A DNA stretch of 64,000 bases from Takakia lepidozioides (Eukaryota > Plantae > Bryophyta): assembly GCA_030704615.1 (NCBI GenBank), contig CM060731.1:32178001-32242000 (forward strand), read 5' to 3'. Positions 21,501 through 64,000 of the stretch are shown piece by piece. The stretch's first letter is position 1. The number at the start of each line of letters is the position of its first letter. The notes below the pieces were generated by a model. It was not told the origin of the DNA. It saw only the letters and a program-made list of their open reading frames with translations, and did not search any database. Made by a program: the position numbers and the translations under genes.

Positions 21501-22079
21501 TGAAGGAGGTTCTTCCCTCTTACCGAGATATGGAGATGGTGGTGCTTCTTTCCCATGTAGATATGGAGATGGGGGTGCTTCTTTCCCATGAAGATATGGA
21601 GATGGGGGTGCTTCTTTCCCCCGAAGATACGGAGCAGGCAGTTCGTCTCTCCCACGAAGATATGGGGATGGTGGTTCGTCTCTCCCACGATGATATGGAG
21701 ATGGCGGATCTTCCCTCCCCTGATGATATGGAGATGGGGGATCGTCCTTCCCCTGATGATATGGAGATGGGGGGTCTTCCCTCCCGCGAAGATACGGGGC
21801 TGGCATTTCTTCTCTCCTGCGAAGATAGGATGGCAGATCTTCTCTTCCACGGAGATATGGAGATGGCGGTTCTTCTCTCCCACGAAGATATGGGGACTGG
21901 GGCTCTGCACGGCCAACAGGGTAGGGGGATGATACTTCTTTCCTTGGGGGAGGAGGCTGCTGGCCCGCCTTGTATAGAGCCTGGCTTAGAGCTTCAAGTT
22001 CCTTCAAGAGTTGACCCCCTGAATCTCCCCTGGGCGTGCCCCCCACTACAGACGGGGATGTCGGTGCAGACCTCACCAT
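15549..22079 (-). CDS. PMIR1: PLASTID MOVEMENT IMPAIRED1-related protein, copy A (NT-C2, PMI1/PMIR C-terminal domain, LysM-like tail), ~1593 aa
   Basis: Inferred exons 22079-19811, 19442-18693, 17473-16894, 16731-15549; all GT-AG with consistent phase (4782 nt). Motifs: QLLKELEALSQALY, KKSFWNWKPFRAI.H..QQRFNC.F, LGKHRLDLSRLLP, SDSEADSPRALLLKQFEQEA, LLEDAETEALMQEWGLN, VQLRDPLRNYEPMGAPM, GESLWSIS...NPHIRNPDVIFP. Confidence 0.93.
21300..21940 (-). repeat. Coding 33-bp minisatellite (11-aa EPPSPYLRGRE-type repeat), ~20 units including degenerate ones
   Basis: Repeated agatatggagatgg core on the + strand; repeats visible in the exon 1 translation. Confidence 0.9.
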
Positions 22080-33009: not shown

Positions 33010-36000
33010 TTATCTCCTCCTAGAGCTAGTATCTCCAAAGGTAACATCAGGGTTACGGGTGTGATGATTGTGCCATTTTGATCCAGAGCCCCGAGCACTT
33101 CCAGTGATGCTCCACAAGGACTCCCCTTTCTGCGCCTTTGTCTTGACTGGTGGAACCTTAGATTTGAGCACTGGGTGCTTGGCTGACTTGCCCATTCCAT
33201 TGGCGACAAGCCACCTCGAGCCAGACAGTTGCTGCTTCTGATTTCCCCATTCTCCTTTCTTTTCAGACGTGTTCTCATCGGCTTTCAGTCCTGACATGGT
33301 CACCTCCACAATCTTGAACTGTGGGGCCTGTGGGGGAGCCTCCGGTTCGTCAGCTTCTTCACTATTCCCTTTTATTGAAATTCGTTTTCCTAGCTTGGGG
33401 CGGGGAGGCATCAAGACCCTCTCTGCCTGCACCATTGCCATCATGGGAGCACCTACAGGCTCATAGTTTCTGAGTGGGTCACGGAGTTGAACCAGCATAG
33501 CCAAAGTTAGGGTGTCACCCATGAATCCCCCTCCCATATCACTTGCACCACCTTTTCCCCCTGGTCTTCCCCAGCCTGCCTTGTCATTGTTATGTTGCTT
33601 ACCTACAACTACGACATCCTTATGTGTAGCATGATGAGCAGCTAGAATTGCCTTGGTGTTCTCATTGTCTTGTGATTCATCGTACACTCCAGCATCAAGC
33701 CTCATCCATTCATCTAATGAGATGGCCATGGACATCAACCCGTCCTCAGAGCTGCACGAAGCTTCCTCCCCAGTGTTCCTGCCTTCCAATAACTGCAATG
33801 CCGAAACACCCTCTAACTTTCCCAAGCCCCCTCGCTTCTTCCTGGATCCTCCTTCTAAAGCTGCCACCTCTCGCCAGGAAAGTGCATCCACACTGTATGG
33901 GGCTTCATCCTCTGCCATGTCAGCTTGTATCTTCAGTCCCTCCATGGCCAGAGCTTCAATCTTCTGCATTGCCATGGGTGCTAGGTCCTCAAGACACATA
34001 AAATCATCAGCTTTCCTTGCAAAGCTGCCATTGCGCATACTAGAACCTGTCCTAGAATTGACAGCCATGCCTGATGAAGATCTTTTGGCCAAAGGGCCTT
34101 CCGAGTAGACACCATCTCCCTGACTCCACCCTGCTTCCCCACTTCCCCCCGGGCCTAATGCTGCATACCTGCAGGTCACGCGAGTGTAACAGTTTAGTGT
34201 TAGTTCGAATTGGTAGTCTCTGAAGAATCCTCCAGGCAACAGTCCCTTCACTGCATGCACAAATACGCTAGGTACTGAAGTAAAGCTCACCAGTGATTTC
34301 ATTACTGAAAGCAAACTAGTCCAGGAAATTACCCATTCCTAAAATTGCCATGCTGGTGGTTCCCTCCTTCCAGAGCAGCTATACCCTCGCTTGCAATTTG
34401 TTCCACACTCTTTCCCATGATATCCTCCAAAGGCATTGCCATCATAGCCTGAACAGCCATGCCTTCCATGCCAGCAGCCGCCATATGACGCAAAATGTCC
34501 ATGGAGCTAGACCCCATCCCTACAGGTACAACCAAGGGCTTTGAAACTTGCATAACCAGTTGCGCACTCATACTGCTTGCTTGAAAGTGCATTGGACTCA
34601 TAGATCTCAACGAACCACCATCGCGGGTTTGGACTATAGGGCCCACACCCTTCCCCAAAGGGGGTAACTGAGGCATGTGAACCAGTGCTGAGCTGTAAGG
34701 GCTATCATAGTCATGTAGTGGGGGACTCTTTGGGGGTGAGCCCTCAAAAACTTTTGCATTCAGACCCCATTCTTGCATGAGGGCCTCAGTCTCAGCATCT
34801 TCCAGCAATTTGGCACGCGTCTTACTCCGCATGGTCTGTGTTGCCTTCTGCAGCTCAGATTCAGCAGCCTCCATGATGGAGGCGAGTTCTATATCCTCTT
34901 CACTGCCCCAACCTGTAAAAGCCAAAACACACATTTTCCAACTCATGGTAAGAATTAAAAAACTACAAGATGGATAAGTTCAAAGCAATGGCATTGTGTA
35001 ATTCACTACCATCATAGTCTAAGCTAATGAACTAGCTTAACTTGCAAAGTTAACATCCAGATTTCCTGCAGAGAGTATTTCACTAGACCATCAATTGGAT
35101 GCAGATTGATTAGATAGATAATAGCAGTGGGCGTTTTCTGTAGACTCTCCAACTAAATAAGAGAAAGGCTGTTCAAATACTCCATTTGTATGGAAGCCAT
35201 TTGTGCCTTTACCCTTCAGTCAGCACTCCCCTTTACGCAATTCTGGAATAGATTAAGTCATCATTTGGGGTAGCCGGTTGATGAGCTGGCTTCATCATCA
35301 ATTCATAGCAAATTCCCAATCAGCAAAAGCAGTAATTTTGAACAATCTGTCAGACAAGTGCATTTCCCTTTGAGGAATTAAAGATTCAACCACAATTGGC
35401 TGAGTTGCCAGCTACGGTCGGTGGCAGAAAGGTGAGTACTCATCAAGCAGTCCCTTACTCCGAGACATAAACGCACTCCCTTTTTGGCCCCCAACTTGAT
35501 TTGAAACAGAGTCTCCTTAAGTTCTAGCCATACACGCACTCAATTGCAGAGGTTGATCCTTGAGTGGCTTCTCTGTTGTGGAGTACAGATCTGCTATATG
35601 GGTTGATAACTCCAACCAGGCTAAGTCTCTAGAATCCATTCAAGTGGGGGTGCTTAAGGAGTGTATGTCAGCATGCTCCAAAACAGCCAATGTGGCTGTT
35701 CGGGGTGAGTTTGGCATTCCGTCCTTAAGCTCCCAACGAGATGAATTCAAGGTCAGATGGTGGGGTCAGCTGCAACATATGCCCAACACCAGATATCCTA
35801 AATTAATCAACTCTATATCTTGGAAACAGGACCGCCCTGTCAAACAGGCTGAGTCCTGGCAGAAGAGAGTAGAAGAGATCCTCAAGGACCTGGACCTGGA
35901 TCCGCAAGTCTTGACCCTGCTGGATAAATCTGACTTAGAGGCTGTAGTGTCCTCAGCCATGTCTGTTGCCATGAGATTGTCTGATGAAAATGAAGTTAGG

Positions 36001-39000
36001 CAGAAAACTTCCCAGAACTTGTTTCCAGTCTGTGACATGGGGGAGGACATCTTGGATGACCTCAAGGGTCTACCCACTCTCGGCACTAGACTGAAATTTA
36101 AGCTCAGGGCAGGAAGCCTACCTTTGAACAGCAAACAGAAGCAGAGAGGAAAGGGAGAGTGCAATTGCCCGTTGTGTGGGCAATCTGAAGACAGTATTCA
36201 TTTTCTGATACACTGTCCGGGGTTCTCTCACCAAAGAGACGCTCTCTTCAAATCTATTAAGGAAATTGTGCCTGTACCCCTGTTTACCAACTTTGAAAGT
36301 CTCGAGGCTGAGCCAAAAGCCCAGGCCCTCCACAGCAGATTGATGCTTGTGTGAAGGGATTTCTAGAGGATATCTGGAAAACCCAGATTAATTCTTTATA
36401 TGGAGGTAAGTCTTACTACCAACGTCAGCCCCTGACAGAGGTAGGTTCTGTCCCTTTTGTTCCCGCTCAAACTGGGCGCGGGGCCAATGGCCACAAGGCT
36501 ACGGCAAACAACGTCTTATGAGTACAATCTGTTGTTGAGAAATCTTGAATTAAAAGAAGAGGCACTTACCCGGGGTGCTTAAGTCATCAGAGAGAGACGC
36601 TTCGTGCATGGACTCATGATCCTTCATAGGCCCCACTTGCTCATGTGGCTCATCCAGCATATCATGCAAGGTAGGATCATGAAGTTCAGGTAAGTTGAAA
36701 CCTAGGCCGACCCCACCTTCAATCAGAGCCTCCTGCTCAAATTGCTTTAGTAGCAGAGCGCGGGGAGAATCTGCCTCACTGTCAGAGCTGCCACCGATGG
36801 GGTCCCTTTCACTCTCTAGCAAATTCAAAAACTCCCCTGCCACAATGTCAATCTCATCATCTGAATCCCCTGTCTCACTTCTCTTCTCTTCTTGCCTGGC
36901 CGCCAGAAGTTCTGTCTCTATCAGATGTTCAAAAGCTTCTCTGTTTTCAATAAGGCCTTCCTCTGCCAAGTCGAAACTTTCCTTCTCTTCATCATTGCTA
37001 TCCGAATCTTTTCGCATAAAACAGTACGGTGAATCTGCAGCCCACACCTGGCAAATATATCCAGCCTCCTCATTGTTACCTCCATTATTCCCTTCCACTT
37101 GTGCAGTTCCCTCCTCCTCTTGCTCTCCCAGTAACTGACAATCCTGCACATCTATGGCATCCAAGAGATCCTGCATTTCAGATTCACCATCCGACGGTAC
37201 CTCTGTTGACCTTCTCTTCTCTTCATAGCCTAGCTCTACATCCCCTCTGTCTGTCTCTTCTCCTTCTGCCAGAGATTCACCCTCGAGAGACAAATGTTCA
37301 ATGACCTCCAAGTCAAGCGTTGCTGAGTCTGCAAAGTGCACAATGCAAAGGTTCCAAGGTATTACAATACAGATTAAATTGAAGCTTGCAGACATTCACA
37401 AATTATTCACCCCTGTCAATACCCACCAACTATAGTAGTCAACATATGGAGCCTCAACATATCCAAACCACCCACTGACCAAGTGGCATGCAAAGATACA
37501 AACTGCAACAGTAAGACAATTTGGTTTGGGCGAGCATTTTGGATGAGCTCAGACACCTACAGAAGTCATTCCATATTCTACCAAAATGAGAGCCAGTTCA
37601 GGTTGGCTCTGGAGCTCCCCAGACTTAGACAGCATCTGCAGGCGCCAACACTATCCCCAACTCACCAACATCATTGGGTGAAGCAGATGAGAACTACACT
37701 ATCAAGTAAATTAAAATGCTTCAGCATGAGTTAATGTGGCACAGTGATCTGACCTTCCACCTCTTCCTCCTCCTCTTGCATACCCACATCGTCCCTCCCA
37801 TCTAGCTGTTGTTCATCTACTGCTGTCTCCTCCTCATAACCCTGAGTAGACAAAGAGTGAGATAGAGTGCCCATCTCAACCCCCTGATCAATCACTGTGA
37901 ATTCGGCTTCATCTTCTGAACTCGCATGAGCATCTTCTGATTGATGTTCATCACTAGACTCCTTGATAAGGTCAAACGTTTCCTCCTCAGACTGTCGTGG
38001 GGTCGGTGGCGCTAGCATGGAATCATCTTGAGGAAACAAGCTTATCTTTGGCTCCCCTCTTGGAAATGTTCTGAATTCTGACCGCATCAATTCTGTCTGT
38101 GCATTCCGGCCCCAAGTGTTAGGGCCATCTGGGATTACAGAGTCATCAAGGCTTAAATTTTCCATGCCAAGATACTCAGCGAGGTCTGCTGGAGCTGATA
38201 TTGTAGGGGAAAGTTGGACATCTGAAGGCCGTGGAGGAGGGACTCTCTGGGGCGAGTGGGGCAGGCTGTAAGAGCGCAATGATTTCAAATTTGGTGACTC
38301 TCGAAAGCTTGCAACTGCAGTACTTGACTGATCAATTTCTTTGTTCACAATCTGATAGCCGAATGTAACCACAAGAGTGCCACCCTTGGCTTTCCCTGAC
38401 AGTTTGAAACTTGTCCTCCAGCTGCTCTGCTTCTCATTGTCACACTTATCATCGAGGCTTTCTGGTAATAGCCGACTCAGGTCCAACCTATGCTTGCCGA
38501 GAACAAGCTCATTAACATCAGGGGCAACTACTGAGAGATCAAAATTCTTTGTCATGTACTTGACAGCATGTGAGCCACTCTTGGAGCCATACACAGTGCA
38601 TTTTAAGTTCAGTGTTTCTTCAAACTCGGCCGCACCCTGGAACACCCGGGAGGGCATAGTGTGTGCTGAGCTCTCTTTTCGTTGCCAGTGCACAGTAAGA
38701 CGGAGACCATTCATTGCAGATGGAAGGCCCTCAATCCCATGAACATGTACCGTGAACAGGCAGCTGAAGCGCTGTTGCCCTATGTGCGCAATTGCCCTGA
38801 ACGGTTTCCAGTTCCAGAAACTTTTCTTTTCCTCTGGCGCCTCAAGTTTCTGGCTCTGCTTAAGATTGTCTTCCAGCCATGCAGGGAGGTTGGTCACTTC
38901 CGGAAAGTTCTTTTCGAATCCCTGCGAATGCCATGGCTGTAAGGCTCCGTCTACTTTTCGTAGACGTGGACTTAGACTTTCGGCTCTCTGAACATCTAAT

Positions 39001-39593
39001 CTGTAAACTGCAGTTTTCTTACCAGAATCAGTAGGAGGAGACGAAGTCCTCGTAGGACTGAGAGGCCTTGGGTCTCGTGACCTAACGTCAGATGACAAGA
39101 GGGAATGCAGAGTTAAGCTTCCTGGCCTGTCACATGATTCACTGACCGAGCGAGCAGGTATCGTGGCATTCTTTGCAAGACGAGGAGATGTTACCTCATT
39201 CTTGGGGAGATACAGAGATTGAGCTTCTTTCCTTTGGGAATACAGAGATGACGCATCGGTCCTACCCAGATACGAAGATGGCGGTTCCTCATTCCTCCCA
39301 AGATATGGAGAGGGTGATTCTTCCCTCTTACCAAGATGTGGAGATGACGGTTCTTCTCTTCCACGAAGATTTGGAGATGGCGGCTCTTCTCTCCCACGAA
39401 GATATGGAGATGCTGGTTCTGCTCTGCTACCAGTATACGGAGATGGTAATTCTTTTCTTGGGGAGGGATCCTGGTGGCCCGCGTTGTAAAGAGCCTGACT
39501 TAGAGCTTCAAGCTCCTTCAAAAGCTGCCCACCTGAGTCCTGCCTGCGTGCACTTCCCCGTGCCGACGGGGACGTAGGGGCGGAGCTCACCAT
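33010..39593 (-). CDS. PMIR1: PMI1-related protein, copy B, ~1445 aa
   Basis: Inferred exons 39593-37754, 37328-36570, 34912-34333, 34168-33010 (4338 nt); same intron positions and phases as copy A and the same conserved motifs. Confidence 0.92.
35207..36520 (+). mobile_element. 5'-truncated LINE (RTE/RTEX/L2-like) in intron 2 of PMIR copy B
   Basis: ORF 35560-36354: VEYRSAIW...TANVAVRGEFG...RYPKLI, KFKLRAGSLPLN, CPLCGQSEDSIHFLIHCP knuckle. Similarity to the copy A intron ends at gccatttgtgc (~35206). Confidence 0.8.
39180..39460 (-). repeat. Coding 33-bp minisatellite in PMIR copy B (~9 units)
   Basis: EPASPYLRGRE EPPSPNLRGRE EPSSPHLGKRE ESPSPYLGRNE... Confidence 0.85.
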
Positions 39594-40312
39594 ACTGACC
39601 CCTTAACAATCCTGTATTTGCTCCTTATCCAACTCACCTCCCACCTTGATCGACATTCCATTGCCCTCTCTCCCTCCGATTCCGCTCTGCTCCCATATAA
39701 CCTTCCACCGTCTCCACACAACTCCAAGTAGTTCTTTGTCGACAGAACCAACCCCGGTCTTGAAGATGCTCTTTCTGGCCAACGCTGTTGAATGCTACCC
39801 TACTCCACTGTGTCTGAACAGCGATGATCGCATGAGCCTCTCCGCACACCCAGCGAAGTACGAGCTGCTGATTGTTCTGGAACACAACCCTTATTACCGC
39901 CACAGCGCCACATTCAAAGCTCGCCCACCATCGTCTGACCCACCCCCATCTACAGCACAGTACGAGCTGAGATCGTGAGACGGAGCTGCATCAGAGCATT
40001 GGAAGCCATGGCAGAAATTGGGTACCTGCACTGGTGGCTTGCTCGGTGTGCACAGGAGACAACACGGCTTTGAACAAAGGCTCACATGCTCAACGACCCT
40101 GCCTCACGTTCCCCGACTAAAAACAAACCACTCGACCCCAACCCCGCCCTGTTTCTTTGCTTTGTTTATATTTGCTTTGGGGATGTCGAGTGTCGGCAAA
40201 CCCCCGCACTGACTTCCAACACAAGAATGTCGTGACTAGACTTTTATAATCCTATCATCCTTCTCATCCGCGATGACACCCTATTTGGAGATACCTATTT
40301 CGAGGTAAGTAC

Positions 40313-46036: not shown

Positions 46037-46567
46037 TGTCGTGCGCATACGTATCGCTACACAACTACATCGTTGTCCAAACTACACCACACATATATGC
46101 ACAATAAAGTAGTCTGCCACAATGATTGAAAACTAGAAACACACTGTTGACACAAGAAACATGAAAACCAACACCATCACTCATCACTCTTTAAAATAGA
46201 AGTCGAGCCAGGGGCACCCCAAGCTATGGGGACTCCACCCCACAACAACCTATTCTCCCTACATAGCACACTCAGATTCTAAAGCGTGAAGGAGCTCGGT
46301 CGTGCAGGCTCAACTCGAGAGAGATGACCTGCGCGACTGACGCTCTCGTGAAGATAAGATGGTTCAGGTGTCAAGCTCAAACTTGACACCTGACTTAATA
46401 CTTGAACTAAATCCAAGTGTTAAATACAAATAACTAGTTTTATTCTAGTTAGTTTCACACTGTGTTTATTTAACTTGACAGCTGTCGTGCGCATACGTAT
46501 CGCTACACAACTACATCGCTGTCCAAACTACACCACACATATATGCACAATAAAGTAGTCTGCCACA
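46037..46567 (-). repeat. 3' LTR region of the gypsy element: two 85-bp TG...CA direct repeats (46037-46121, 46483-46567)
   Basis: The copies differ at one base. A PPT (AGGGGGGCG, 46570-46578, minus) lies next to the inner copy. Confidence 0.75.
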
Positions 46568-46834
46568 ATCGCCCCCCTAGCTGGTGGATAGGTCCCTCTA
46601 ACTCCAGATAGTTACAAGATGTAATAGCCACAGCCGTACTAAGTCCTCTATCACTGTCCCTATTGTACTCAAACTCTATAGACCAAGAGGCCGGGTACAA
46701 GAGTAGCCCCATCGTTAGTCGTCGTCTTGCAATCTGTGAACTTGAGCCAAGATCTCGTGTGTTCAAGGTCTCATAGTAGCTTGGCCTTGCATTTCTTGTT
46801 AGCCTTCCATGGTTGTATCCACTCCCACTATCCA

Positions 46835-46985
46835 ATGCAATGTGGACATAACCAATCCCCATCCGGAACCATCTCAAAGAGGTGGAGTCAAGCATCCCAT
46901 ATGCCAACCTCTAGAGCATCGATCACACACCAGCATGGTGGCTGCCCCTCTAGCAGACCCACACAACATGCACTTCAAACTTGCA
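46835..46985 (-). pseudogene. PHD finger at the integrase C-terminus
   Basis: CMLCGSARGAATMLVCDRCSRGWHMGCLTPPL, then a frameshift, then EMVPDGDWLCPHC (C4HC3). Confidence 0.9.
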
Positions 46986-46999
46986 GATACCACTGTCAG

Positions 47000-48135
47000 G
47001 TTTGGGTCAATCCTGCCATCGACATTTGGAAGGTGACATGGCGCACAATTACGCACATGGTCCTTCCAAGTTATGCCATCCCGACCCTCCAAGATCAAGA
47101 CGCCTGAGGGCAAGACCTCTCAAACCCTCAAAATAACACGTCCTGCAGTCACATCCAAGGTCATAAGAGCAGTCTGCTGCAGATAGACATAGTCACCAGG
47201 ATTGAATCTCCGAACCCCAGGACGAAGCCTCCACCACGTATGGTAGCATACCTCAACGTATCACGATGTTGTGCAATGGCAAGGTTCTCGAAAGCCATTG
47301 GCATGACTTTCTTGAACAACTCTGCACGCTGATCACATGCACGTGCCCACACGTCCGGATCGTCGAGATTAAGAACTGTAGCAGCTTCTCTACGAATGGA
47401 TGTAGGCAAATCCGGCTCTCGGCCAAAGAGAAGAAAGTATGGTGAGAAGGAGGCAAGTGATGCTTGCTTGCTGAACCTGTAGCCCATGGCTAACCAGGGT
47501 AATTGAAGTTCCGAATCTCCTAGGTGTCCCTTCTGCAAGCCATACTTGCGCAAACCCTTCTTTATTGTCTGAACAACTCTCTCTGCCAAGCCATCGGCCT
47601 CAGGATGATCCCGAGAAGTGGTACGGTGGTCTATCAAGGCCTTGTCACACAAAGCCTGAAACTCCCCCAAGAACTCTCTCCCTTGGTCCGTGAGTACCTC
47701 AGCTGGAGCACCAAAGCGGCTAAGTACACAATCCAAGAACGCATACTCGATCCACTTGGAGAAGTGCTCCACCATCACCAAAACGTACTTGTTGTGACGC
47801 ATGGTCAGTGGCAATGGCCCTGCGAAGTCAAGACTCCACCTGTAGCCCAATCCCATGATCGGAAGAGGGTGCAATTGTGGAGTAGGGGCGTTGAATGAAG
47901 CACGCACCCTGTCACACACCATGCACCTAGCCACAAATTGTTGCACCTCTGTGTGCATACCACGCCACCAATACTGCCCCTGCAGTAGACTATGAGTGCG
48001 TCGCACCCCAAAATGCCCCAACTCCTCATGGGCATGCCGCACTAACCGTGCCCGCTGTGTTAGGTGAGGCACAATCCTCACTCAACCATCCTCCCACACT
48101 CGGAGCAGGTGTGTCCCCTCCCACTTGAACCTCTT
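47000..48135 (-). pseudogene. Gypsy integrase
   Basis: HEELGHFG...CMVC zinc domain; WSLDFAGPL, VLTDQGREF, HPEADGLAERVVQTIK, FSPYFLLFGR. Confidence 0.93.
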
Positions 48136-48138
48136 GGC

Positions 48139-49830
48139 TCATTGTAGGATCTGATCCCTCTCCTTGGCAGTCACAGTGGCTGCAGTGTCTCCAGTGCGGA
48201 GGTAGTCCAACACAACTGAATCCTCATGTATATCTTTGGCGCCACCTTGCTCATTGCTGGCCTCAGGGTCCTCAAACACTTGATCTATAGTCATCCCTGT
48301 TGCAGGTCCAACCTGGCCTTCCGCTGCCAAGATACACAGAAATACAGATGCATGCCATCCGGGCACCATCTCCTCGTCCGTCTCACCATGCCACCGAGCT
48401 CCAGTGTCATCCTGTTGGCTCGTGCATGGATTGCGACTCAACCCATCTGCATTGCGATTGACCAAACCCGGTCGGTGCACAACCTGAAAGTCATATTCTT
48501 GGAGGATGAGTGCCCACCGTACAAGCTTCCCCGTAAGCTTGTCTGACTCCATCAACCACTTGAGTGGTTGGTGATCCGTGACAAGGGTGAAGAGATTGCC
48601 GTATAGATAGCACCTGAAGTGTGCCACGGCCCACACTGCAGCTAAGCATTCTCCCTCATATGAGCTATATTTAGACTCTGCAGCATTGTTCGAGCGGCTA
48701 GCATAAGCCACTACGAACTCCCTTCCCTCATCATCCACCTGTGTGAGCACCGCTCCAAGCCCCAACATGCTCCAATCCGTATGCAGCTAAAAAGGACGCC
48801 CCCTGATAGGTCGTCTCAAGACGGGCGCCGAGGTCAACCTTGCCTTGAGCTCTTGAAAAGCTTGTTCTTGCTCATCTTCCCACTGCCACTCCTGGTCCAC
48901 CTTGGTCAGTTTGGTTAGAGCCTTTGCAATGGCACTAAATCCCTTAACAAACCGTCTATAATAGTTTGCTAACCCCATGAAAGCTCGAACTCGGCTCACA
49001 TCTGTGGGGCGTGGAATCTGTGCAATGGACTCTACCTTAGTTTGCTGTACCCCCAATCCTCCAGGATATATCATGTGACCCAGATACTCAATCTGGTTGT
49101 GGAAAAACTTGCACTTTCCCGGATGTAACTTCAATCCGTGCGCCCTCAAGCGCTCAAATACCCCCTGAAGGTGTCTCTCATGCTCCTCCACCGTAGCACT
49201 AAAGATGATGATGTCATCTATGTAGCACTGAGCAAACTCCACCCCTGCTAGAATCCTGTCCATGACTCTCTGAAACTCTGCCGGAGCGTTCTTAAGCCCA
49301 AATGGTAAGAACCGCCACTGGTATAGGCAATCCTTCCCGTGTTCATTGATCCCCCAGAATGTCGTCTTCTGCTTATCTGCCTCCTTGATCGGCAACTGGT
49401 GATATCCGGATCGTAAATCCAAAGTGCTAAAGACCTTGGCATGCCCAATGGCATCAAAGATCTCCTCTGGTGTCGGCATGGCATACCTATCGGACTTGGT
49501 CTGACAATTTACAGGCCGGTAATCACCGCACATACGTCTCTCCGTCCAATTGCCATAGACATCCTTCTTGGCTGGCATCACTGTGGCTGAAGCATACTCT
49601 CCCCCAGATAGCTCCACCAAACCAGCCTCCCAAAGGTCTTGAGTTCTTATCTTATGTGAATCAAGAGCTTTTGGTAACTAAGACTAGTTAGTACTTGCGC
49701 CATGTCACTGTATCTATAGGATCTCCAAAAGATTGGCGTGTCAGTAGCCAATTCAATGCAAATCTCTTGACCCTTCAGTGCTCCTAAGTCCTTCAAACTG
49801 AAGGCAAAGCAGTTTTTGTAAGCCCTCAAG
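48139..49830 (-). pseudogene. Gypsy reverse transcriptase and RNase H
   Basis: RMCGDYRPVN, FSTLDLRSGYHQL, LPFGLKNAPAEFQR, YIDD, EYLGH; RPF*LHTDWS..GLGAVL, YSSYEGECLA, TDHQPL, NADGLSR. Confidence 0.95.
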
Positions 49831-50229
49831 AACCGCCGTATACGTCGTCTCTCTCCTCCGGTGACTATAGGTCCAACATCAGGCTCCCAGTTGTCCTCCG
49901 TGACTACAACCTTGAGTCCAGCAGGCTTAGAGGTAGAAGACTCGTCCCGTGGTTGCTATGCTACAACCTCTTGAGCAGTGACCACTGCCCCCTTTGTCAG
50001 TGACAATGTCTCACCCTGCCCCATCATCCCATCCTTGAGGACCTCCTCAACCCGAGAAAAATTCCCAACCTGATCCATCACTGCCGCCTTGGCTGCCAAC
50101 TCCTTCTGAACCTCGAGCAGCTCCCACGTGTGCCATGGATGCGGCCTACACCTTGTGGTCCTCACCTGCTCGCCCCCACTCGCTGCCTGTACCATCTCGG
50201 TAGGAAGGGAGACCATCATGGGAAGTGTA

Positions 50230-51215
50230 CTCCGTACTCTGCGCTGCTCAGCCATAACCAAGCTGATAATCCAGGTCAAGCAATTGAGATCCATTGCTTG
50301 CCCCAACACCTGACGACGTGATGCCTCAGAAAGAGATGGCACCGCAGTGGTACCAGTGGTAAAACCCATCGCCCGCTTGCGCTCGTCAGCATTGGGCTCC
50401 ACTAATTGTTGCAACTGGCTATCCCACAATAGGCCAGGTCCACCATCCCGAAAAGCATGGGATCCTGGAAGTCTGAGCAGTGTAGGTAATGCTGCTCGTG
50501 GTTGACCCACCCTGTTGACCACTGCCAAAGGCAAACGGTCATCGTGTCTCCCACGTTGAGACTGCCTCCCTGTGTCCAAAATGTTATCCACTGTGAGGTG
50601 TGATGGCCGTTGCACCCCATCAAATGCACGCTTGAGCAGTGCGGGTGGCATCAAGTTAGTCCACCATAGCCGTGGACGATGAGCCCGTGACCCCACTGCA
50701 GCTGCATCCAGCAACACTGCTGACCCAAGCCACGACCGGACTTGATGCACACTGGCCATCACCCTGGCCCGAGAATCACCCATCAGTGGCACATTCTCCA
50801 AGATGTATGCTGGAGATACAGCTTGATGAAGCTGCAAGTGGCGCAAAATCCGCACCATCTCCCAAAACAGACCCGTCCTCGAGTCTCGCAATCCATTGTC
50901 ATGCCCGGCTGATGAATGCCCTTGGCAGGGCCAACCTGCCACTACCATATCAATGGAGCCAACTTGCTCCAAATCCTGCGCCCCCAGCAACGAAATGTCT
51001 GCTGGCAAGGCTTGTTGGTATCCACGAACTGCAGACACTGACAACAAATCAGGGTACTGCTATATCAACTGAGCAACATGGCGCAGTGAGACGTGTCGTG
51101 CAGTCTCATCCCTCTCCACATACAGGTAACGTCGAACTCGTACACCTGCCTGCAGTATTGCAGCCAATCCAATGCTGATCCCGCCAAACAAGTCCAGAAG
51201 GCATATGCCTTCATC
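50230..51215 (-). pseudogene. DNMT3-like C5 cytosine DNA methyltransferase domain within Pol
   Basis: Motifs in canonical order: I LLDLFGGISIG, II YLYVERD, IV DMVVAGWPCQGHS, GLRDSRTGLFWEMVRIL, VI YILENV, VIII DAAAVGSRAHRPRLWWTNL, IX ERKRAMGF, X RRQVLGQAMD. One in-frame TAG at 51060-51062. Confidence 0.92.
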
Positions 51216-51569
51216 CGGGCACTGCCACACAAGAGGTGTGGTGTCCAATGGCGACAACTGAGGTTGTCCTCGTGCAATCACCGCACTCTCCTCTTCTCCT
51301 GACGGTACGAAGGCCTCTACCCAGGCTTGTTGTACCCGTCCATCAGCAGCCTACTGCAAATCCTTGCTCGTACCCCACAATGGAGTGTGAGCAACCATGG
51401 CAGACAACTCCGCCGTACCATGCATGTCATCCTGCTTTGCTGGAGGTGGCACATCCTCTGCATGGGCATTGCCTTCCAGCAACTCTCCAGGCCAACTAAC
51501 TGCAGCTGTAAAAGCGGCTAGTGTTGGCATCTTGCCCCACTGCGCAACCGCAATACCCCCAATGAAATG

Positions 51570-52059
51570 TCACATGGAGCTGTGCACGACGACCATCCCC
51601 TGACTGCCATCCAGGCCTGTAGGATGTTGACTCCTCCCAAAAGTCCAGGGTGAAACCCATGGGATATAACACTACCCCACCAACAAGAACATCGTAAGAG
51701 ACCGCGTCTGTCACAATGGCCTTGGCTCGCATCACCGAGCCATCTATAGGATGATCCGGCTGCAGTCTAATGGCCAACTCACGCCGTGTCATGCCCCGAG
51801 CCTACTCTGATCCTCCCAGAGATGTCTGTATCTGGAAATGACAAGGCTCCATATCCGCCTCCATGAGGCCCAAACCTGCAATAGCAGCTCTGCCCAACAT
51901 CAGTGGCTGAGCTCCCGAGTCCAACAAGACCCGCAGTGGCCGGTACTTCTTGCCTGCCGGTCCACTCAAAGAGAAAGTGCCATCCCGGTTGTCTAACAAG
52001 ACAACTCCAGGTGTCACCATGGCGCGCTCAAAGGCTGGCCTAGCTGGCAGCTCCGTCAA
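51570..52059 (-). pseudogene. Retropepsin aspartic protease
   Basis: VLLDSGAQPLML ... YDVLVGG..L..MGFTLDF. Confidence 0.85.
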
Positions 52060-52077
52060 CCTGGCAGCTGCAGCTTG

Positions 52078-54130
52078 TCATGGTGCAGCCGTGGCAGTCT
52101 TGACCCTCAAATCCGAGGATCCCTCTGCCACTACACCTTCCAGTAACTTTGCAGAAGATGAAGTGACCTCCCCACTCTCACAGAGTGTTGCTGCTAGTCT
52201 GAACATTGCAGCTGGTCTTATCCCCGGCGTCGCAATCATGGTTGCCGAGAACAGTGGGGCTTGACACACAGAGGTGGTTGCCCCCAATAACACACCGGCT
52301 GCACTAGCCTTGGTAGCAGGTGTCAGTGATGCACGTGTAGCTCTCCCCAATGGCATAGTAACCTCCGCCTCGGTAACAGTCGGGCGAGAACTAGGTGCCA
52401 TGGATGGCGTCGACACTGTCTCCGCCAATGTGAATGACTGAGGATGCCTCGCCTGATGGCTTGCCTCCCCACGCTGTGGATCCAATTCCACCTCTGCACC
52501 TCGTGGCTCAGGAACTCGTGCTGCTCCTCGAGTCACGGCTGCAGCAGACTCCACCTGCTCTAGTGGTAGTGCTGCTCCGCACATGAATCCCATGCCTCCC
52601 ATATTTCCTCCCTCAAGAGCAGGAGGTGGACCATCCCGCTTGGGAGCCGGTACCACCTGAGCTGTAGCCATGGCAGTGAGCCTCTGCTCTAGCTGCTGAA
52701 GCCGGTTGGCCATGCCTTGGTCAACACCCTGACCTCCGCGTACTTGGCCATGTTGAGCTTGCCCTTGGCCTACACCTCGTGCCCGGCCACCTCGTCCTCT
52801 CTGGGCTGGTCCACCTTGCCCCCGGCCACCATTGTTCTATTGGAACAGGCCTGGGCGCAACTCAGGATGCAAGTCATAACACTGGGCATCTCCATGCCCA
52901 TACTTGCCACAATGCCCACACTGCAACTGTGCAGGCTGTGACGGTGCCGGCCTTTTGCCACTCTCTGGGCAATCTCTCTTGACATGGGGTCCTCCACATG
53001 TCCAACATATCACTCATGGTTACTGTTGGCTTGCAAAGGATGCTACTGGCCTTTGCACCTGAGGTCCTCTGTAAGCTCCATGAAATTTGGGTTGGAAAAC
53101 CTTGCCCCCCTGACCACGTTGTTGGGCAGTCCCTTGTGCCTGTGGGCTGGCAGCTGCACCTCTTGCAGGCATGTCTTTGCCAAATCCAATGGTAACAACT
53201 CGCTCCTCCACCATGTTGAGCTCAATCCGCTCAGCCAGCAGAAACACATCTGCTAATGTGGGTTGGGCTGCTTGTAACAGGGTTGCATCCCGCACCCTTC
53301 TCCTGAGCTCCTTGTCCAAAATTCCATACCATAACTGGATTGCTTGAGCTTCAGTAACCCCTTGGGTCACACTTATCAAGCGCCTCATACGAGTGTACGC
53401 CTCTCGCAGGCTCTCACTGGTTTTGCGCTGGAAGTCTTGCAAACTTCGCAGCTTCTCTGTCCGTACACCTTGGTAGTTCCTCCGTAACTCCTGGAAGAAC
53501 TCCACCACCGGGTTGAATGTAGGCACATGTGTTGTAGTCGTGGCAGGAGGAGTAGTAGCACCTTTTGAACTGTCACCACCTGCAGAAGTACCGGCACTAC
53601 TTGTTGCACTACTAGTGCTGGCAGTAGGAGATATTGGTGCTGATGCAGCTACTGGTCGCGTCGTGCCTCGAGTAATGGAGACGTAGTCAGGTGACCAATA
53701 CATCCTCCACTTCATGTCCTCGCCTGAACTCGTGGTAATCGTCCATAGGCGGGCCTTCCAAATGCTGGAACAGTCCTTTCTACGCCATGAATGGGGTGAA
53801 CAGCTGTGGATTGTGCATCTGTTGCAAATCACACCAGCTGTCGAACTCCTGGATAAAGTCATCCAGCTCAATTGTGCCCACAGCTCCAGAGTACCTACGA
53901 GGCCCCTTGGTAGCTCCATACATCTCCTCCATGTCGTCCCACAACAATGGCGAATGAAACTGCACACCTGTTGATGAAGCCTCCGAGTCTGTGTCTTGAC
54001 TCTGCACTAGTTGAGGGTGGAGGTGAAGGTGGTCTGAACCGAATACCTCGTCTTGTGAACCCACTCTCATTGTTACTGCCTGTAGCCATACTCCCCTCAA
54101 AACCCTTGGGTAACTCCGTGATGACACTCA
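52078..54130 (-). pseudogene. Gag (capsid-like region and CCHC zinc knuckle)
   Basis: ELDDFIQEFDSWC, LRSLQDFQRKTSESLREAYTRMRRL, CGHCGKYGHGDAQC (~52870-52925); frameshifted. Confidence 0.85.
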
Positions 54131-55274: not shown

Positions 55275-58200
55275 TCACCTTTCCTCATACTCTTCTTTGG
55301 CCACAGAGTCACCGTGCCTTTCACGTGCGCTAGTGTGGTCTGGGGGGGGGGCATCGTCCACATTTGGGCAAGGCAATGTAACACTTGGAAGCATGATCTC
55401 GTGGACTTTCACCTTGTACCACCCGGATCGAATGTCCTTGCAGTGGAACTTGTCAACCCCGGCTATTCCCACCACTTCCGCCTTGGCGGCGGCTGTCTTT
55501 GACCGCTTGTCATGGGGGTTCAGGAGAAACACAGGATCTGATATCTGCAGACACCAACATCAGGGTCCACTCAGCAACAAACATAGCAATGACAGGGTGA
55601 AAGTCAAGCGCAGCTGGGCATGGAAACGATCTTGGTTGCCACAATACTGAATCAGCAGCAAATTCACGGATACCAACGTACCTTGAAGCGAAGCTCGTCG
55701 CTGAGGGTGGCAATTGAGGAAAGCTGCCCACGTGTCTTCAACTGCAGCAGCAAAAAGAGGTTTAGTCAGACGGATAAGAATAACATGAACTCTGGTGGTT
55801 GCAATGGTATAAACACACCTCCACGGAGCAAGCTAACAAACACCCTGCTCAGACCCTGCACACTACAACTTCCTGGCAAAAATAACCCTACTAAAAACCA
55901 GCCAGGCAAAGCAAGGAGCCATGAATGCATGCCTGGGGAACCACGTCCTGCTACGATGATGGTGCCGGGGACAGCCCACTCCTCTTGCTCACCTGCAATG
56001 AATACACATTGCAACGCTTCAGGAAGTGTATCCATAAAGGAAACCAACCAAGTAAGTTTGCGGAGAGGGGCTGGGAACAACCATACCTTGGGCGCTGCCT
56101 CCTCATGCCGGGGGGGAAATCCGGAATGCTGCTGCCGTAGCACTATGGTCCTAGGCGCAGGACCCACCTTCTTCACATTCGACCCCACTGCCACTCCCTG
56201 TACATGTGGTCCCTGCAAAACATATAGTGCCAGCCTTGCGTGAGAGGGCATCCGGGGGAACAAAACAAACATGGACTTTGGCTTCGATGTCATGTTGCAA
56301 ACAGTAAGGTTAGTTTCACCTGCATGGGCGCAGAAGTACTTCCCCCAACGACCCCATCCTCTCCCACATTCAAGCTGCCAGTCGGGGTCAGCTTCCGCGT
56401 GCTTGTGAAGACACGCACATCCTTGGAGCAAAACAAATCTTGGCAGTAGGGCCAGACTGTTTCTAAAAGGTAGTCTGAATCGGGCCCCTCACTGACATTG
56501 CCAGTGACATCAAACGACAATGGATGGACCATGTTCAAAGGGGAGTTCCCCTCCCCTTGTGTGGTGAATCATCCACTAGGAGGGTGTTGGATTCGTTAAA
56601 TCCAAAAAATTCCGACCACACCCTCGACAGTCTCTTCTGTAAGTTCTGTACGGCAGGCCCTTTTGTGGGGTGTGGCTCTGTCAAGGGGTCACACTCCTCT
56701 TGTGACCACACAAAGAGGGGAGAACCCTTGACCCCTACATCACCACTTTGAAGATGTCTGCAACATTCCCCTTGGAAGCACAGGACCATATCCCAACGTA
56801 GAAATACCGGAAGAGAAGGTTTAAAACTCGCAACCTGGGGCCTTGGGAAAACATACTTGTTGGTGGTCAACACCCATGGCCAATGACGCCTTGGGTTGGG
56901 CTGAAAGTTAGGAATAGAGTGGCACAGGATCCCGTTCAGGTCTAGAACAATTAGTTTCGACTTTTCTATGAAAGGAGCTTTTGAAGGGGTGTCACGGGGT
57001 CTCACCTCAGTGGGTTGGGAGACAACAGTCACCCGGAGGGCAAAGTTTCGGTCCCCCTGCAGCCTGGACCAGGCAAACTACCACCCTCTCCCCCTACAGC
57101 TTCCCCTTTTCCCCCATCATGAGCAATGACCCCCCCATCGTCCATGTCATCCCCACCAACTTGCTGGACCTCTCCCTCTTCAACGAGTGGACCCTGCCCC
57201 CCACTGTGAATATCATCAACAACAGCCTGGACCTCTGTCACATCCCTACCCACTACAATTACTTCCTCCTTGTCAGGTACAATGGTCGCAGCAGGGGGTC
57301 TTCCATAATGCCACCCGTCACACCCCCTTTTTGCCCCATCATGAGTTCCACTATCTTCTTCAATTGTGCTTCCATTCCCCTCTCCCGCTCCGCAGAGAGA
57401 GCCGCAAGCCTCTCCAGGGCCCCGATGCGGGCTGCCATTGAGTTCCCCGCTCCCTACGCATACAAACACCCACCCGTACTGTTAAAAACCAGAAGAAGAG
57501 GCGAATGTGCAGGATTTCAGGCATTCGGAGATGGCTGGGTTTGGCATAACACCCCTCCTGTACCATGCGTGGGGGCCCCACATACCCCACCAAATCTTAG
57601 TACAACAACAGATTCATGAATGGAAACCGGACTTCAAAACATACCTGGCTCAAAACAGACTCTGATGGGGTGCCAGTCGCAGCGTTCTTGCACTCCGCCC
57701 CGAGCTCGGACAGTGACGGGCTCCGCGCTTTGCGTCTTTTCTGTATTTGCCCATCCACACACTGTCAGTACAAAATGCCAGGAGCATATGGACAAAGCAC
57801 TACCCTGCATATCACATAACAACTAATTTTGCACAAGCAATAAAACCCACTCGTGGGTATCTCTTCCATCAGAACATGCCACAACATAAGAGCAATGAGA
57901 AGGGGGTGAGGAGATTACCAAACGGGCTGCTTGGCCTGCAACTCCTACCCGGCCCCAACGCGAGGGGTTCGTGACACAAGCACGTGCTTGCTTCATCCCT
58001 TCAGCCTTTGCAAGTCCACGAGGGGACTCCCAGTAGGCAACAAGCTTATCCCAATAGGCGGGTTCAATGTTCATTGGCCTCACACCAGTCTTCGCCCATT
58101 TATCTTTCAGTTTTGCTCTTTCTCCTTTCATTATCTTCCCACATTGCTTCACTATAAAATCACGATTGGCAGGGATAGGTGTGTACTCGTACATTCTATT

Positions 58201-58560: not shown

Positions 58561-59344
58561 GACGTGGCAACATCAGGAAGCCAGCGCCACGACCCCGAAG
58601 CAGGGGGGGCTCCCCATGGTGCACTCTGTTGTGGAGACCATCCGGCAGGGGGTGGGTGCCAAGATTGGTGTTGATTGGCATTGTGTGGTGGCTGTGAGTG
58701 CTTTGCTGCAGCTTCACTCCCCTTTCGCTGCCAAAAACATCCCACACACAAGGTGCATCAGCTGTAGTCCTACTGAACACAACATCACCAGAGCACAAAC
58801 CATCCCACAACCACAACTATGGATTGGCTGACCTCAAACCCACTCCCCTGCAGCGCAAGTGCCAAAAACTGAAAAGGAGAGGGACAAAATGTCCTCATAA
58901 CATGTAAGCCCATTCATTGGTGAAGAAACAGAATGTGGGCGGGTTCACATCAGTACCACATGAACGTACCAGGAAACAGAACATCCATCCGGGTTTTGCA
59001 CATATCCGTGGACATCTATTCACACAATCAGCAAATGGCTGTATGGCGGAGCCCAGCAACGGAGCCCAAAAAGGCCTAAAGACTCTCAATGTTGGTAAAT
59101 ACAGGTGCAGACACAATTCAATTGAAAGGATATTGCAGACCTAGCCTCGTTGGAGTTATCAACGCATATAGCAAATGCGTACTCCAACGCAGGTGCAATG
59201 ACGTGACAAAGCAACATTTCCTTGACCTAAAAACTAGTCCCTCTGCACACAGTGGTAGACATGAAGGTTTTTCCACGATGTCCTCCCCCATGTCACAAAT
59301 TGAAAACATGTTCAGGGATGTTTTATGCCAAACTTCATTTTCTG

Positions 59345-59960
59345 CCCAATCAGATCTCCTCTACACTGATGATGTTGCCCTTTTGGCACAATCCCCAGTC
59401 TTTCTGCAACGCCATCTCAAAATTTTGGAACAGTTCTGCAAAGACTATGGGATGCAAGTCAATCTTAGCAAGACCAAGATCATGGTCTTCAATGGCCAAG
59501 CTGATCGTAGATTCATCTTCAACCAGCAGGAAATTGAGATTGTCAAATCATACCGGTACCTAGGTCTGGTTATCCACTCCCCCAAGTTTCACTTTGCAGC
59601 CACTGCCTTGGACAGATTGACTAAAGGTAAGGCGGCCTCCGTCCGCCTTCACGCCAAATGCAAGCAAATACATCTGCGGCATCCCCCGACCAAAAAGTGG
59701 TTGTTTGACACCGTCGTCAGCCCTGCTACCATCAAGGTTGTGAGTTCTGGGCACCTAGTGTCCCTGTCTCCTGGTGGGGAAAAGAATTTGGAACCATTAC
59801 AGTCACTTTTCTCCAAGCAATGCTTGGCGCCAGGAGCACAATTCCATCTCAGATCCTAGGTGCAGAGTTTGCATGTGTCCATTTGCAATCGAGACCACAG
59901 GTCGGCCTACAATCTTTCTCCATAGATTGCAGGCCCTTCCACCCCAACGACGCAATGGAG
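59345..59960 (+). mobile_element. Non-LTR retrotransposon RT fragment (RTE/L2-like)
   Basis: LLYTDDVALLAQSPVFLQRHLKILEQFCKDYGMQVNLSKTKIMVF...VKSYRYLGL. Confidence 0.85.
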
Positions 59961-60559: not shown

Positions 60560-63500
60560 TATCCCGCTGCAAAAGAGTATCGACCTCGTTGAAACTCATA
60601 GTGGCCTGGTGAATGAAGTTGTCACGTTTGGGATCGCAAACCATCCTCTTCAAAATATGAAATACAAATGTTTGCAGGGTATGAATTTACCTCTCTTGCC
60701 CAAACTGGTTGATAGCATATTCACAAATCAGGACATGTGCAATTGGGGAAATTGGAAACCGTGATGTCGTAGGTCCTGTCATGAACAGCAGATGTGGAAG
60801 TGATGATTGGGAATACCCGACCATATCCTGGATCGGGTACTTCCGTGGTGCTTCCAACACGAGCTTGGAGCATTCTTGCGGACTCCACTTTGCCAAAGTG
60901 TTCAGCGGTTGGAGGGAAACGCCGAACGAGCTTTCCATCTCGTTTGGTTGGCCACAAGTCAGGATTTGCCGGGGGGACCCGGGAGGACGCAGAAGTAGTA
61001 GCACATGCATGGAGTTGGGGTTGTCTCGCAAGGGAAAACCTGCCTCCTCCAGCATTTCAATCTCCTGAAAGATGAGATGTGTTCCCACCTTCACGGGCCA
61101 AACGGTTGGAGGAGATGGCTTCATCACTACGGAAGGACGCATAGATCCATGCACACATTTGGCACAATCATCTGCGCAGAACCAGAACTTGTGGTTCTTG
61201 GCTTCTGGTTGACCGTATGGACGCATCAAGCCGTGAAAGTCGGAGCAGGAGTTCGGGCACTGCCTCTGGATATAGATGAAGTGCACTTCTCAAATTAGTT
61301 GCCCTGATCGCTGTACATTTCACACGAGACCCTACACTTGTGCGTTCTATGTGCCAAACGTGGTCGGGGCATGCGGACTCAAGCACATCAAGGGGGTTGT
61401 TTCTCTCTTGCACCATTTCAGTGGCACTGTTTGATGCTGGAGCTTGCCGTCGTGTTGGAGGTTCCTCCACAATGGAGGTTCCGGACATGGAGCTGTCATG
61501 CAGGGGAACACGAGGCTTCGAGAAGTTATCACGGTCTGCCCTGTGGGAATCTGAATCCAAACCAGGTGGAGTGTTCAATTTCCTCTTACAGGAGCCGAAT
61601 CTCTCCTCCCTTCAAGATGTGGAACTCTAGAAACAAGTGGCGTTCCCTGGGCATACATGCTCACCGCCCGTGCTATCTTGATTGGATCCCCAGATCTGTT
61701 TGCAGCACGCAACATCAACTCCCATTTGTCCGGACCCTTGCCACCAACCCCACCTCGTAAGAAATCACGGTATCGGTTTGTTGTTGCAAGGCACGTATCA
61801 AATCATCTGTTGTGCCACATAAAATCCCGACCTCGTTTCCCAGACTGCTGCAACCATGCGTTGTGCACAGTTTCTGCCAAATTGCAAGATGGCATGTCCG
61901 CCATTTCCTCAATGGACATGTTCTGCAAAGTGCAGAACCACACTTCAAAACAGTGAACAGAAAACAACATAAAGAAGCGAGGACACAAAAAATGGAAAGC
62001 AAATGTATGAAAAAGCAATAAATATAAGCCTCGTACCAATGGCATGGCTGCTCCCCACTGTCTATACCGGAAGTGCCAAAACGCCAGCCAATCTTCCAAT
62101 GCTCTCATACTCTCAAGTGATGCAGCTCCAGAAGAGAACCACCAGGCACGAATTGTCTGGAACAAAGTGTCCGCCTCCTTCATTGTTCTAGCATCTTTGT
62201 ACTCTTTGCACAATTTACGGTGCTGAGTCTGCATCTCTGGTTTGATGTCCGACTTTGTATGTTTTTCCAGAGATTGTGTCCAATGGAATAGACATGTACG
62301 CTCTCTTCCTCGCATTGGAACTTTTGGGTCGCCCGATCCGAAGACAATACGAACAGCATTGAAATTTGCTTGAGCACTATCCGCCATGAAACCTGCAAAA
62401 TTTGGAGATGGCAGCCCATGACACGTATCAGGGAATTCCACATGAGCTTCTGGGATTCCGTATCCTCGGATTGCATGTCACAAACTGCAATTGTCATAAC
62501 TCGTTGGTACACTGGATCGTAGACATGACAAGCCATTGTTGTCCAATCCTTCACTCGTTTCACATGATCAAACATAAGAAAACAGTTCTGCAAGTCCCAG
62601 TCTTCTGCATCCGCTTCACGAGGCTAACCCCACTGCCCTCCCCAACAGTCGACATTTTGAAAAGAAAAACTTTGATGGCACCTTGACCTGGGAATACATT
62701 GTCCTGGATGTAATCGTACTTGCTCACTCGTTTCAATTCCAAAATATTGTCTATGTAGCCTCTGATCCCAGAGCCCATTCTCAATGCATTGATCTGATGC
62801 CGAATGTTCGGTGAACTTAAAGTGGAGAAATGATCCATGACCAAGTCCAATGCTGCACCGTCAAGTTTAGTCCCCACAGAATCCCCTTCACTCAAAATAT
62901 GGCTTTCCAAGAAGGACTTGCTTGCGCCAAGAGCAATTGCAGATGTTGTTGCGGATGGGTTTCTCCGAACTCCTGTTTAATCAACCTCGATACTGTCTCA
63001 ACACTCTCCCTGTAATCCCCCTTCGAGACAGGATGGTTATGGAATCCGAAATGCACACAAGCTCTTGTCATTGTTTTCAAACGGTGGACAACATAGTACA
63101 TTCTTGCTCCGCAGAGCGCCAAGCAGGATGGCACAAGTTGCAGAATTTGCAGACGAAAGTGTTTGCCGGTGGAGGGGCAGTCCCAGGCTGAAATGGATTT
63201 TCCGCCAGACCCTCCCATTCGCTTTGATTATGAACCCCAGACTGAAGAAAGTGTCTGCAATTCAAATTATCACACCTAAGGTGTCCATTGCAAACTGTCC
63301 TCCTGAAAACAAGCTTGTCATCATTCTGAATATTGGATGTTTTTGTTCTGCACCACGGGTGTCCCGTCGTGTTTCTTGTCCATTCCATGCATCATGATTG
63401 TTACACCTCCAACGTGGAGGAGGAGGCAGCTCGAATAGGATATCGCCATCAAAAGTCTCCGGCAAGAACTTCACAGGCACCTGCTTCAAAGATTCCCAAT

Positions 63501-64000
63501 CAATTCCCCGCAACTCACTTTTGAATCCAGCCATTCCTCCCATCGCCCGCAATTTTGGAATGACACTACAAATCTCTTCTTCATCAGCTTCTCCAACCAC
63601 AGTAGGAAGGACTGGATTTGGAATTTCACTTATGTCATCATCGGAAGAATCCGAAAGCTCAACGATTGGAGTGGAGGACGTCTGTTCTTTTTTCACCACC
63701 ACCTCCCTCTTGTCTTCAACGACCGAAGCAGCAGTCCCGGGCGTCACATATTGACCCAAGGGACTTTCGCCGAGGCTCTCCAAGTACTCTGTATCGACCA
63801 GGACGCACCTCCCACTGGCTGATATGAGCCGTCTCATCACGGTTTTGGAAAGAGTATTTCAACAACTTCCCTTTAAGATCGTACACCTCTTTCTCCAAAA
63901 AGATGGAGCCATTCTGCAGCTGAAAACGGGTAGCCAAGACATGTTCCAGAACAATTGCAAATCCATTGTCAAGGACTTCCTGGGAGAACGGCACTGGTTT
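60560..64000 (-). mobile_element. MULE/Mutator-type DDE transposase pseudogene with GCM/WRKY-like zinc domain and SWIM finger
   Basis: CNGHLRCDNLNC...CKFC...C...HFGFHNHP; LMFDHVKRV, GFMADSAQANFNAV, CLFHW, CNLAETVHNAW; SWIM CTCPD...CKHLYFI (~60650-60745). Many frameshifts; continues beyond the window. Confidence 0.8.

Follow-up and report, generated by a model that had tools for sequence, protein, structure and literature searches.

Why does a Gypsy-type retrotransposon carry a cytosine methyltransferase (MTase), and why is the enzyme encoded where it is? The question is raised by a 64,000-nucleotide stretch of DNA (here called the window), which holds such an element on its minus strand, from ~53935 (gag) to 46037 by six-frame translation and Pfam. 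In our reading, to which we give a rough probability of 0.55, this is a decayed copy from a high-copy family whose first open reading frame (ORF1) encodes Gag, protease and a DNMT3-like enzyme (Gag-PR-DNMT) and ends at a UAG that is likely read through, with the MTase made at Gag-like abundance and likely methylating the new complementary DNA (cDNA) of the element. What DNMTs carried by retrotransposons do has been an open question since 2018.

The reading is carried by the stop codon between the MTase and the reverse transcriptase (RT). Judged by sequence comparison, the TAG at 49956 is a conserved stop of the family and not a product of decay. At positions 49950-49958 no alternative letter reaches 5% in four sequencing runs (438, 147, 5 and 1 contigs), a second organism label included, all 7 differing rows of the stop-region read comparison having been examined. 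Four of the 11 decay stops of the window copy fall among the 40 differing rows listed, alongside which there are 841 more, and each of the four is a different base in more than 96% of depth. The context of the stop was surveyed in 80 metagenome loci, of which 17 end before the RT linker and 63 were assessed; a stop followed by CAR-YY is found in 58 of the 63 (41 TAG, 17 TAA), with a departure from this pattern in three of the others and tyrosine in place of the stop in the last two (L036 and L039), which may be a single insertion and mere decay. UAG-CAR-YYA is the readthrough consensus of tobacco mosaic virus (TMV), tyrosine being the residue put in, at a level of ~10% or more in plants (PMC2754532; PMC3159437).

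The hexamer after the stop is CAA CCA in the window and L012, CAG TTA in L037 and L043, CAA TCA in L042 and CAA CCC in a Sphagnum-like family, so that the first five have the exact stop plus CAR-YYA with the downstream reading frame in phase, and the Sphagnum-like family has CAR-YYC. Divergent subfamilies, with MTase identity down to 49%, differ in the amino acids after the stop and share the nucleotide pattern. In L037 a Gag-PR-DNMT frame of 1369 codons, one TAG and 1047 codons of RT, RNase H, integrase and PHD finger (RT-RH-INT-PHD) lie in one single frame, and the junction in L042 is the same. Database Gag-PR-DNMT proteins terminate at the position matching the window stop (tblastn), six Marchantia gene models doing so 98 residues past MTase motif X. 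Since the stop is conserved, ORF1 is Gag-PR-DNMT and readthrough would give a long polyprotein only in minor amounts; that RT-RH-INT-PHD is made by readthrough of this stop is, from these patterns, quite probable. The original prediction had placed the MTase inside Pol, in an ancestral PR-DNMT-RT-RH-INT-PHD polyprotein. Neither point is supported: the stop kept in the reads and in those 58 loci closes the Gag-PR-DNMT frame and puts the MTase on the Gag side, and a stop-free Gag-PR-DNMT-RT-RH-INT frame occurs only in a sister lineage (P0257).

The features of the window copy are the following:

52840..53935, minus strand: broken gag region that includes a zinc knuckle; ORF1 starts here (Retrotrans_gag E=0.0018; zf-CCHC E=0.053; tblastn to residues 1-757 of Marchantia P0004)
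51574..52077, minus strand: aspartic protease with 1 internal stop, a frame break behind it near 51570 (Asp_protease_2 E=0.018, below cut-off; homologues in frame across the break)
50202..51212, minus strand: DNMT3-like C5 cytosine methyltransferase domain, 1 decay stop at 51060-62 (PF00145; PDB profile; structure model; Foldseek)
49950..49958, minus strand: conserved UAG followed by CAA CCA (CAR-YYA); end of ORF1 and predicted readthrough site (conservation in reads of four runs and in the surveyed loci)
49839..49948, minus strand: predicted RNA stem 3' of the stop, arms ~49924-49948 and 49839-49868 (duplex -17 kcal/mol; 1.4% of synonymous recodings equally strong; relatives mixed)
48790..49955, minus strand: linker and reverse transcriptase, frame break at ~49650-49700 (RVT_1 E=5e-33; other copies shorter at the break)
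48142..48786, minus strand: RNase H (RT_RNaseH E=2e-34)
47225..48081, minus strand: DDE integrase including an H2C2 zinc finger, part of it deleted internally near 47745 (Pfam Integrase_H2C2 E=2e-16 and rve E=2e-8; loose ends in the read comparison)
46830..46972, minus strand: PHD finger, interrupted where the frame breaks near 46877 (PF00628 E=1.9e-6)
46569..46582, minus strand: polypurine tract immediately before repeat B1 (sequence; same tract in relatives)
46483..46567, minus strand: repeat B1, TG...CA (98% identical to B2)
46477..46486, no strand assigned: palindrome GACAGCTGTC where B1 meets A2, predicted to serve as an internal attachment site (shared with the divergent locus L042)
46124..46480, minus strand: segment A2 (placed by analogy with L031, L051 and L070)
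46037..46121, minus strand: repeat B2, 3' end of the element, ...GACA (repeat comparison; relatives)

The domain order by Pfam is thus gag with zinc knuckle, protease, C5 cytosine MTase, RT, RNase H, integrase and PHD. The MTase had rightly been placed between protease and RT, with the protease motif (~51917) upstream and the RT, RNase H, integrase and PHD downstream; the frame break near 51570 and the TAG at 49956-58, followed by the peptide then quoted, lie where they had been reported. The 11 decay stops and the 5 frame breaks counted in six-frame translation mean that this copy is dead. The TAG in the MTase, another just upstream of it, the frame break ahead of the RT core and the integrase deletion had gone unmentioned in the original prediction.

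By profile and structure model, the MTase domain is DNMT3-like and not MET1-, CMT- or DRM-like, as first proposed from motif signatures. Motifs I, IV (PC), VI (ENV), VIII (RxR), IX and X follow each other in normal order at ~51212-50250 on the minus strand, which bears out the earlier description of a non-permuted enzyme with its catalytic motifs, and the hidden Markov model PF00145, proposed as a check, matches with E=4e-14. A profile of 39 sequences searched against the PDB scored 94 bits for DNMT3A, 84 for DNMT3B, 49-61 for DRM, 40 for HhaI and 28 for DNMT2, with no DNMT1, MET1 or CMT chain among its 56 matches. The structure model (pLDDT 93.9, decay stop read as X) returned in Foldseek only DNMT3 among the matches listed, DNMT3A being the best (top TM 0.72/0.84). 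Of 38 relatives, 37 retain the catalytic cysteine and all 38 the motif VI glutamate. The enzyme is probably active in live copies. Further afield, the ESM Atlas yielded only generic DNA_methylase clusters, and viral contigs only distant phage MTases (30 loci).

The family is very abundant in its host, that is, high-copy. The stretch is at least partly present in 10 of 12 sequencing runs; in run X1, 80,110 contigs aligned and summed depth over the MTase bins is 0.8-1.2 million, of the same order as over the RT, these depths being evidence of presence and not of copy number. Searches at the protein level yielded 55 long and 177 short relatives, including named proteins (52-72% identity) from Marchantia polymorpha, M. 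paleacea, Calypogeia fissa, Riccia sorocarpa and Sphagnum. Six Marchantia models (Mp_4g09160, Mp_5g06330, Mp_5g06860, Mp_Vg00370, Mp_Vg00540 and Mp_8g17980) are Gag-PR-DNMT frames of the family annotated as hypothetical or CCHC proteins, several of them on the V chromosome. As to selection, pairwise ratios of non-synonymous to synonymous substitution (dN/dS) in the MTase come to 0.12 for the pair L037/L043 (pS 0.22, dS unsaturated), 0.12 for L037/L042 and ~0.10, near saturation, for the window and L004; five other between-family pairs are saturated (pN/pS 0.29-0.47), and decayed copies inside one family give 0.57-0.96. On these comparisons the MTase is an integral part of the family under purifying selection. 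The original prediction had likewise denied that it was passive cargo, and neither of the findings that it held would overturn it, an MTase confined to one copy or evolving neutrally, applies given the bryophyte relatives and a dN/dS of ~0.1 between subfamilies.

What would such an arrangement achieve? Each Gag molecule would come with an MTase, and only a fraction would also include RT and integrase. Fusion to Gag would likely bring it into the particle, and the adjacent protease could free it next to the new cDNA; packaging and release in this way appear probable. That the new cDNA is the main substrate has about even odds. New copies would probably profit by resembling methylated host DNA, or by being damped at the outset.

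The ends of the element are unusual as well. The window shows two 98% identical repeats (B1 and B2), 446 bases apart, at the 3' end, and no 5' partner (A1) of segment A2 was found within the window by blastn or local alignment. In relatives, A lies at the 5' end, and the 3' end is either polypurine tract-B-A-B or polypurine tract-B alone; full A...B-A-B split repeats occur in L031, L051, L064 and L069/L070, the window holding the 3' part only. Segments A and B each run TG...CA, and among nine distinct relatives' insertions with both ends the 4-bp target duplication is exact in six and has one mismatch in three. The palindrome GACAGCTGTC at the B/A junction is common to the window and the divergent L042. 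Two bases separate the polypurine tract from B1 in the Sphagnum-like family, and the same two stand between A2 and B2; this would be expected had the ends of a normal cDNA with B-A long terminal repeats (LTRs) been joined to each other and the product then opened at the internal palindrome. It is our hypothesis that the split repeats arise from integrase cutting the internal palindrome of such an end-joined circle; integrase cleavage of circle-junction palindromes has been reported in foamy virus (PMC1180852). A symmetric two-LTR-circle model, however, predicts A-B-A forms at the 5' end, and none was seen among 17 distinct 5' ends, so that an asymmetry would be required. Elements of the A...B form with 4-bp duplications (L023 2816-11455, L073 2507-11240, L050 and L056) may be products of B1-B2 recombination or of one-LTR circles. 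No transfer RNA-type primer site was seen by eye 3' of A1. It is rather doubtful that one green-lineage Gypsy group combines all three of these: particles that a leaky stop loads with DNMT3-like enzyme at the stoichiometry of Gag, methylation of the element's own cDNA, and circle integration at an internal palindrome.

Several points weigh against the reading given at the outset. Most of the 63 loci belong to the one Sphagnum-like family and are partly repeats of the same insertions, so that independent support for the stop comes down to about five subfamilies; in that family the sixth base of CAA CCC is off the consensus and an ATG follows three codons after the stop. Four database models (P0007, P0009, P0013 and P0035) fuse DNMT to RT with shortened linkers, which splicing could explain. 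A stem is predicted ~7-11 nt 3' of the stop, its sequence differing between subfamilies, and it is better than under synonymous recoding (p <=0.014) in only four of nine sequences; folding of the whole segment 3' of the stop is weak (z +0.9 to -2.4). In a reporter, the Tca2 gag-pol junction gave no readthrough (PMC2194720). As for methylation, the CpG ratio is 0.51 in the element against 0.29 in neighbouring host genes, and this weaker depletion gives no sign of extra CG self-methylation. The DNMT domain of KnitGypsy-Dnmt3, a related algal element, showed no activity in yeast, a result called inconclusive by its authors (PMC5890265).

The rival that survives best, though fairly unlikely, keeps the enzyme and the stop and lets RT and integrase be made by splicing, reinitiation or an internal promoter. 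The ATG of the Sphagnum-like family, where reinitiation is possible, the stop-skipping gene models and the Tca2 precedent favour it; however, no ATG lies close 3' of the stop in the window, L012, L037 or L042, the stop-skipping models omit different lengths, and frame and CAR-YY pattern are shared by all subfamilies. Unlikely, too, is that the MTase rides the pre-integration complex and methylates the host insertion site via the PHD finger, or determines which of two internal palindromes is used by the integrase. A PHD finger ends ORF2 both in this family and in chlorophyte-type elements, the latter with the MTase beside the integrase, and only A...B(AB) forms were found, with no A-B-A among those 17 ends; in the clade of the window, liverwort and Sphagnum-like elements, however, the MTase is made with Gag, upstream of the stop and unconnected to the integrase. 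Very improbable is a domain without methyl transfer, acting as a DNA-binding or decoy module, or one that modifies RNA, as the lack of yeast activity of the Klebsormidium relative (PMC5890265) might suggest, since catalytic residues are nearly invariant in 38 relatives and DNMT2 reaches only 28 bits. Passive cargo, a chance insertion or algal contamination, for which the break within the window's MTase might speak, is refuted by an MTase read depth of the same order as that of the RT, relatives in four named bryophyte genera, the low dN/dS and intron-containing PMIR1-like host genes in the same window with best matches in liverworts, which also disposes of the alga that the original prediction had allowed for.

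Those host genes form a minus-strand tandem pair (15549-22088 and 33010-39602) that is 75-87% alike; C2-NT, PMI1 C-terminal and LysM are the Pfam labels of their best matches, and one carries an expanded 33-bp repeat at 21355-21836. A PMIR1-like exon best matches Riccia and Marchantia (61-62%), then a lycophyte, then Sphagnum. The host is a non-seed land plant and not an alga, and from these matches probably a bryophyte. The window also holds LINE-like RT fragments at 59080-59859 (RVT_1 E=2e-10) and 35557-36354, the two regions sharing inverted matches, and a weak NIF phosphatase-like fragment (56535-57077, minus strand, Pfam). Broken frames at ~60700-63900 on the minus strand, one piece of which was scanned without a Pfam hit, resemble a DNA-transposon-related gene.

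The relationships of these elements were examined in a quick, unrooted RT tree of 31 rows, which included 16 of 47 RT-RH-DNMT-INT-PHD proteins and no host enzymes. MTase-before-RT elements (window, liverwort, Sphagnum-like, L037) fall on one side, with the stop-free single-ORF P0257 and P0336 as sister, and RT-RH-DNMT-INT-PHD elements, including a Scenedesmus protein, on the other. An MTase tree, rooted on four phage MTases only and with no host DNMT3, recovers the same groups with a weakly supported base and joins the dominant Sphagnum-like loci to a Sphagnum protein. One old capture of the MTase, with its position changed later, is plausible from these trees, and the land-plant clade would have gained the stop afterwards. 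Two further observations concern related proteins. P0390 combines a Copia-type gag domain (PF14223) and a related C5 MTase in one protein, possibly a separate capture. P0040, P0042 and P0053, of chlorophyte type, in which the C5 MTase stands between RNase H and integrase, also carry a DPWAG motif at the C-terminus. This motif has no Pfam hit and is reminiscent of adenine methyltransferases such as those in the dual-methylase elements described in a 2026 preprint.

If selection keeps the MTase on the abundant side of a leaky stop, this argues for a job needing many molecules. The family is present in a tractable model, Marchantia polymorpha, with several annotated, uninterrupted Gag-PR-DNMT genes, so that activity, packaging and cDNA methylation are directly testable there. 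Surveys that look for LTRs would miss elements with split-repeat ends, which point to an unusual integration route, and the extra DNMT3-like gene models can distort host methylase counts in bryophyte genomes.

Among known systems, the charophyte precedent mentioned by the original prediction is KnitGypsy-Dnmt3 of Klebsormidium nitens, for which Gypsy domains, a Pol ORF containing a DNMT3-related domain, Ka/Ks <0.2 and DIRS-like repeats have been described (de Mendoza et al., 2018; PMC5890265). As described, it shares with the present family the Gypsy order PR-RT-RH-INT, a DNMT3-related domain that is non-permuted, lacks introns and has the key residues, purifying selection acting on this domain (here dN/dS 0.10-0.12 between subfamilies) and DIRS-like split repeats. 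By the same description it differs in having DNMT, RT and RNase H in one ORF, an arrangement shared only by the sister lineage P0257, whereas here UAG-CAR-YY lies between them; the host here is a land plant instead of Klebsormidium, and "Marchantia" is absent from the text and searchable supplements of that paper (PMC5890265). Later papers mention streptophyte Gypsy-DNMT3 elements, in the text available to us without land-plant detail (PMC12344493; bioRxiv 10.64898/2026.05.21.726589), and a survey of plant LTR elements contains neither "methyltransferase" nor "PHD" (PMC6317226). Our literature search found no description of the land-plant family, its readthrough site or its ends, subscription journals, Repbase, figures and bioRxiv supplements, which may describe the group, lying outside it; CARYYA with retrotransposon gave nothing, Marchantia gave nothing on this family among the papers listed, and split direct repeats with Gypsy gave nothing on this group by title and abstract start.

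With Type I readthrough of tobamoviruses the family shares the stop and hexamer, the in-frame downstream enzyme ORF and a possible stem 7-11 nt after the stop (PMC2754532; PMC3159437). Unlike that arrangement, the predicted readthrough stop here follows protease and MTase and not Gag alone. For SIRE1, suppression of an env stop is said to occur. Chlorophyte-type RT-RH-DNMT-INT-PHD elements (Scenedesmus P0272, Monoraphidium P0055 and many more) have a related MTase (35-45% identity) and the PHD finger, but the MTase lies between RNase H and integrase and they form a separate clade in both trees. The A...B-A-B layout is that of DIRS, PAT and Ngaro elements, including SymbioDIRS-Dnmt3, which methylates CG de novo (PMC5890265); those use a tyrosine recombinase, in contrast to the DDE integrase, TG...CA ends and 4-bp duplications found here, and the rve integrase and target duplications rule out DIRS/Ngaro membership. 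Troyka (CG...CG termini, 3-bp duplication) was rejected on termini and duplication length, and a chromovirus on L037, whose ORF2 has only the PHD finger after the integrase and no chromodomain. A canonical LTR retrotransposon shares the TG...CA ends and, in relatives, the 4-bp duplication, but its two complete, identical terminal LTRs are replaced by A...B-A-B or A...B. Host plant DNMT3 (PpDNMT3a/b) has a like non-permuted catalytic domain and carries DUF3444 (PMC6453930), and neither DUF3444 nor a host DNMT3 was found among 62 proteins scanned. Taken together, the element is a relative of a described algal element and not categorically new, and its distinct features, as read from the sequences, are an MTase on the Gag side of a conserved stop of leaky type, split ends flanked by 4-bp duplications, and occurrence in Marchantia.

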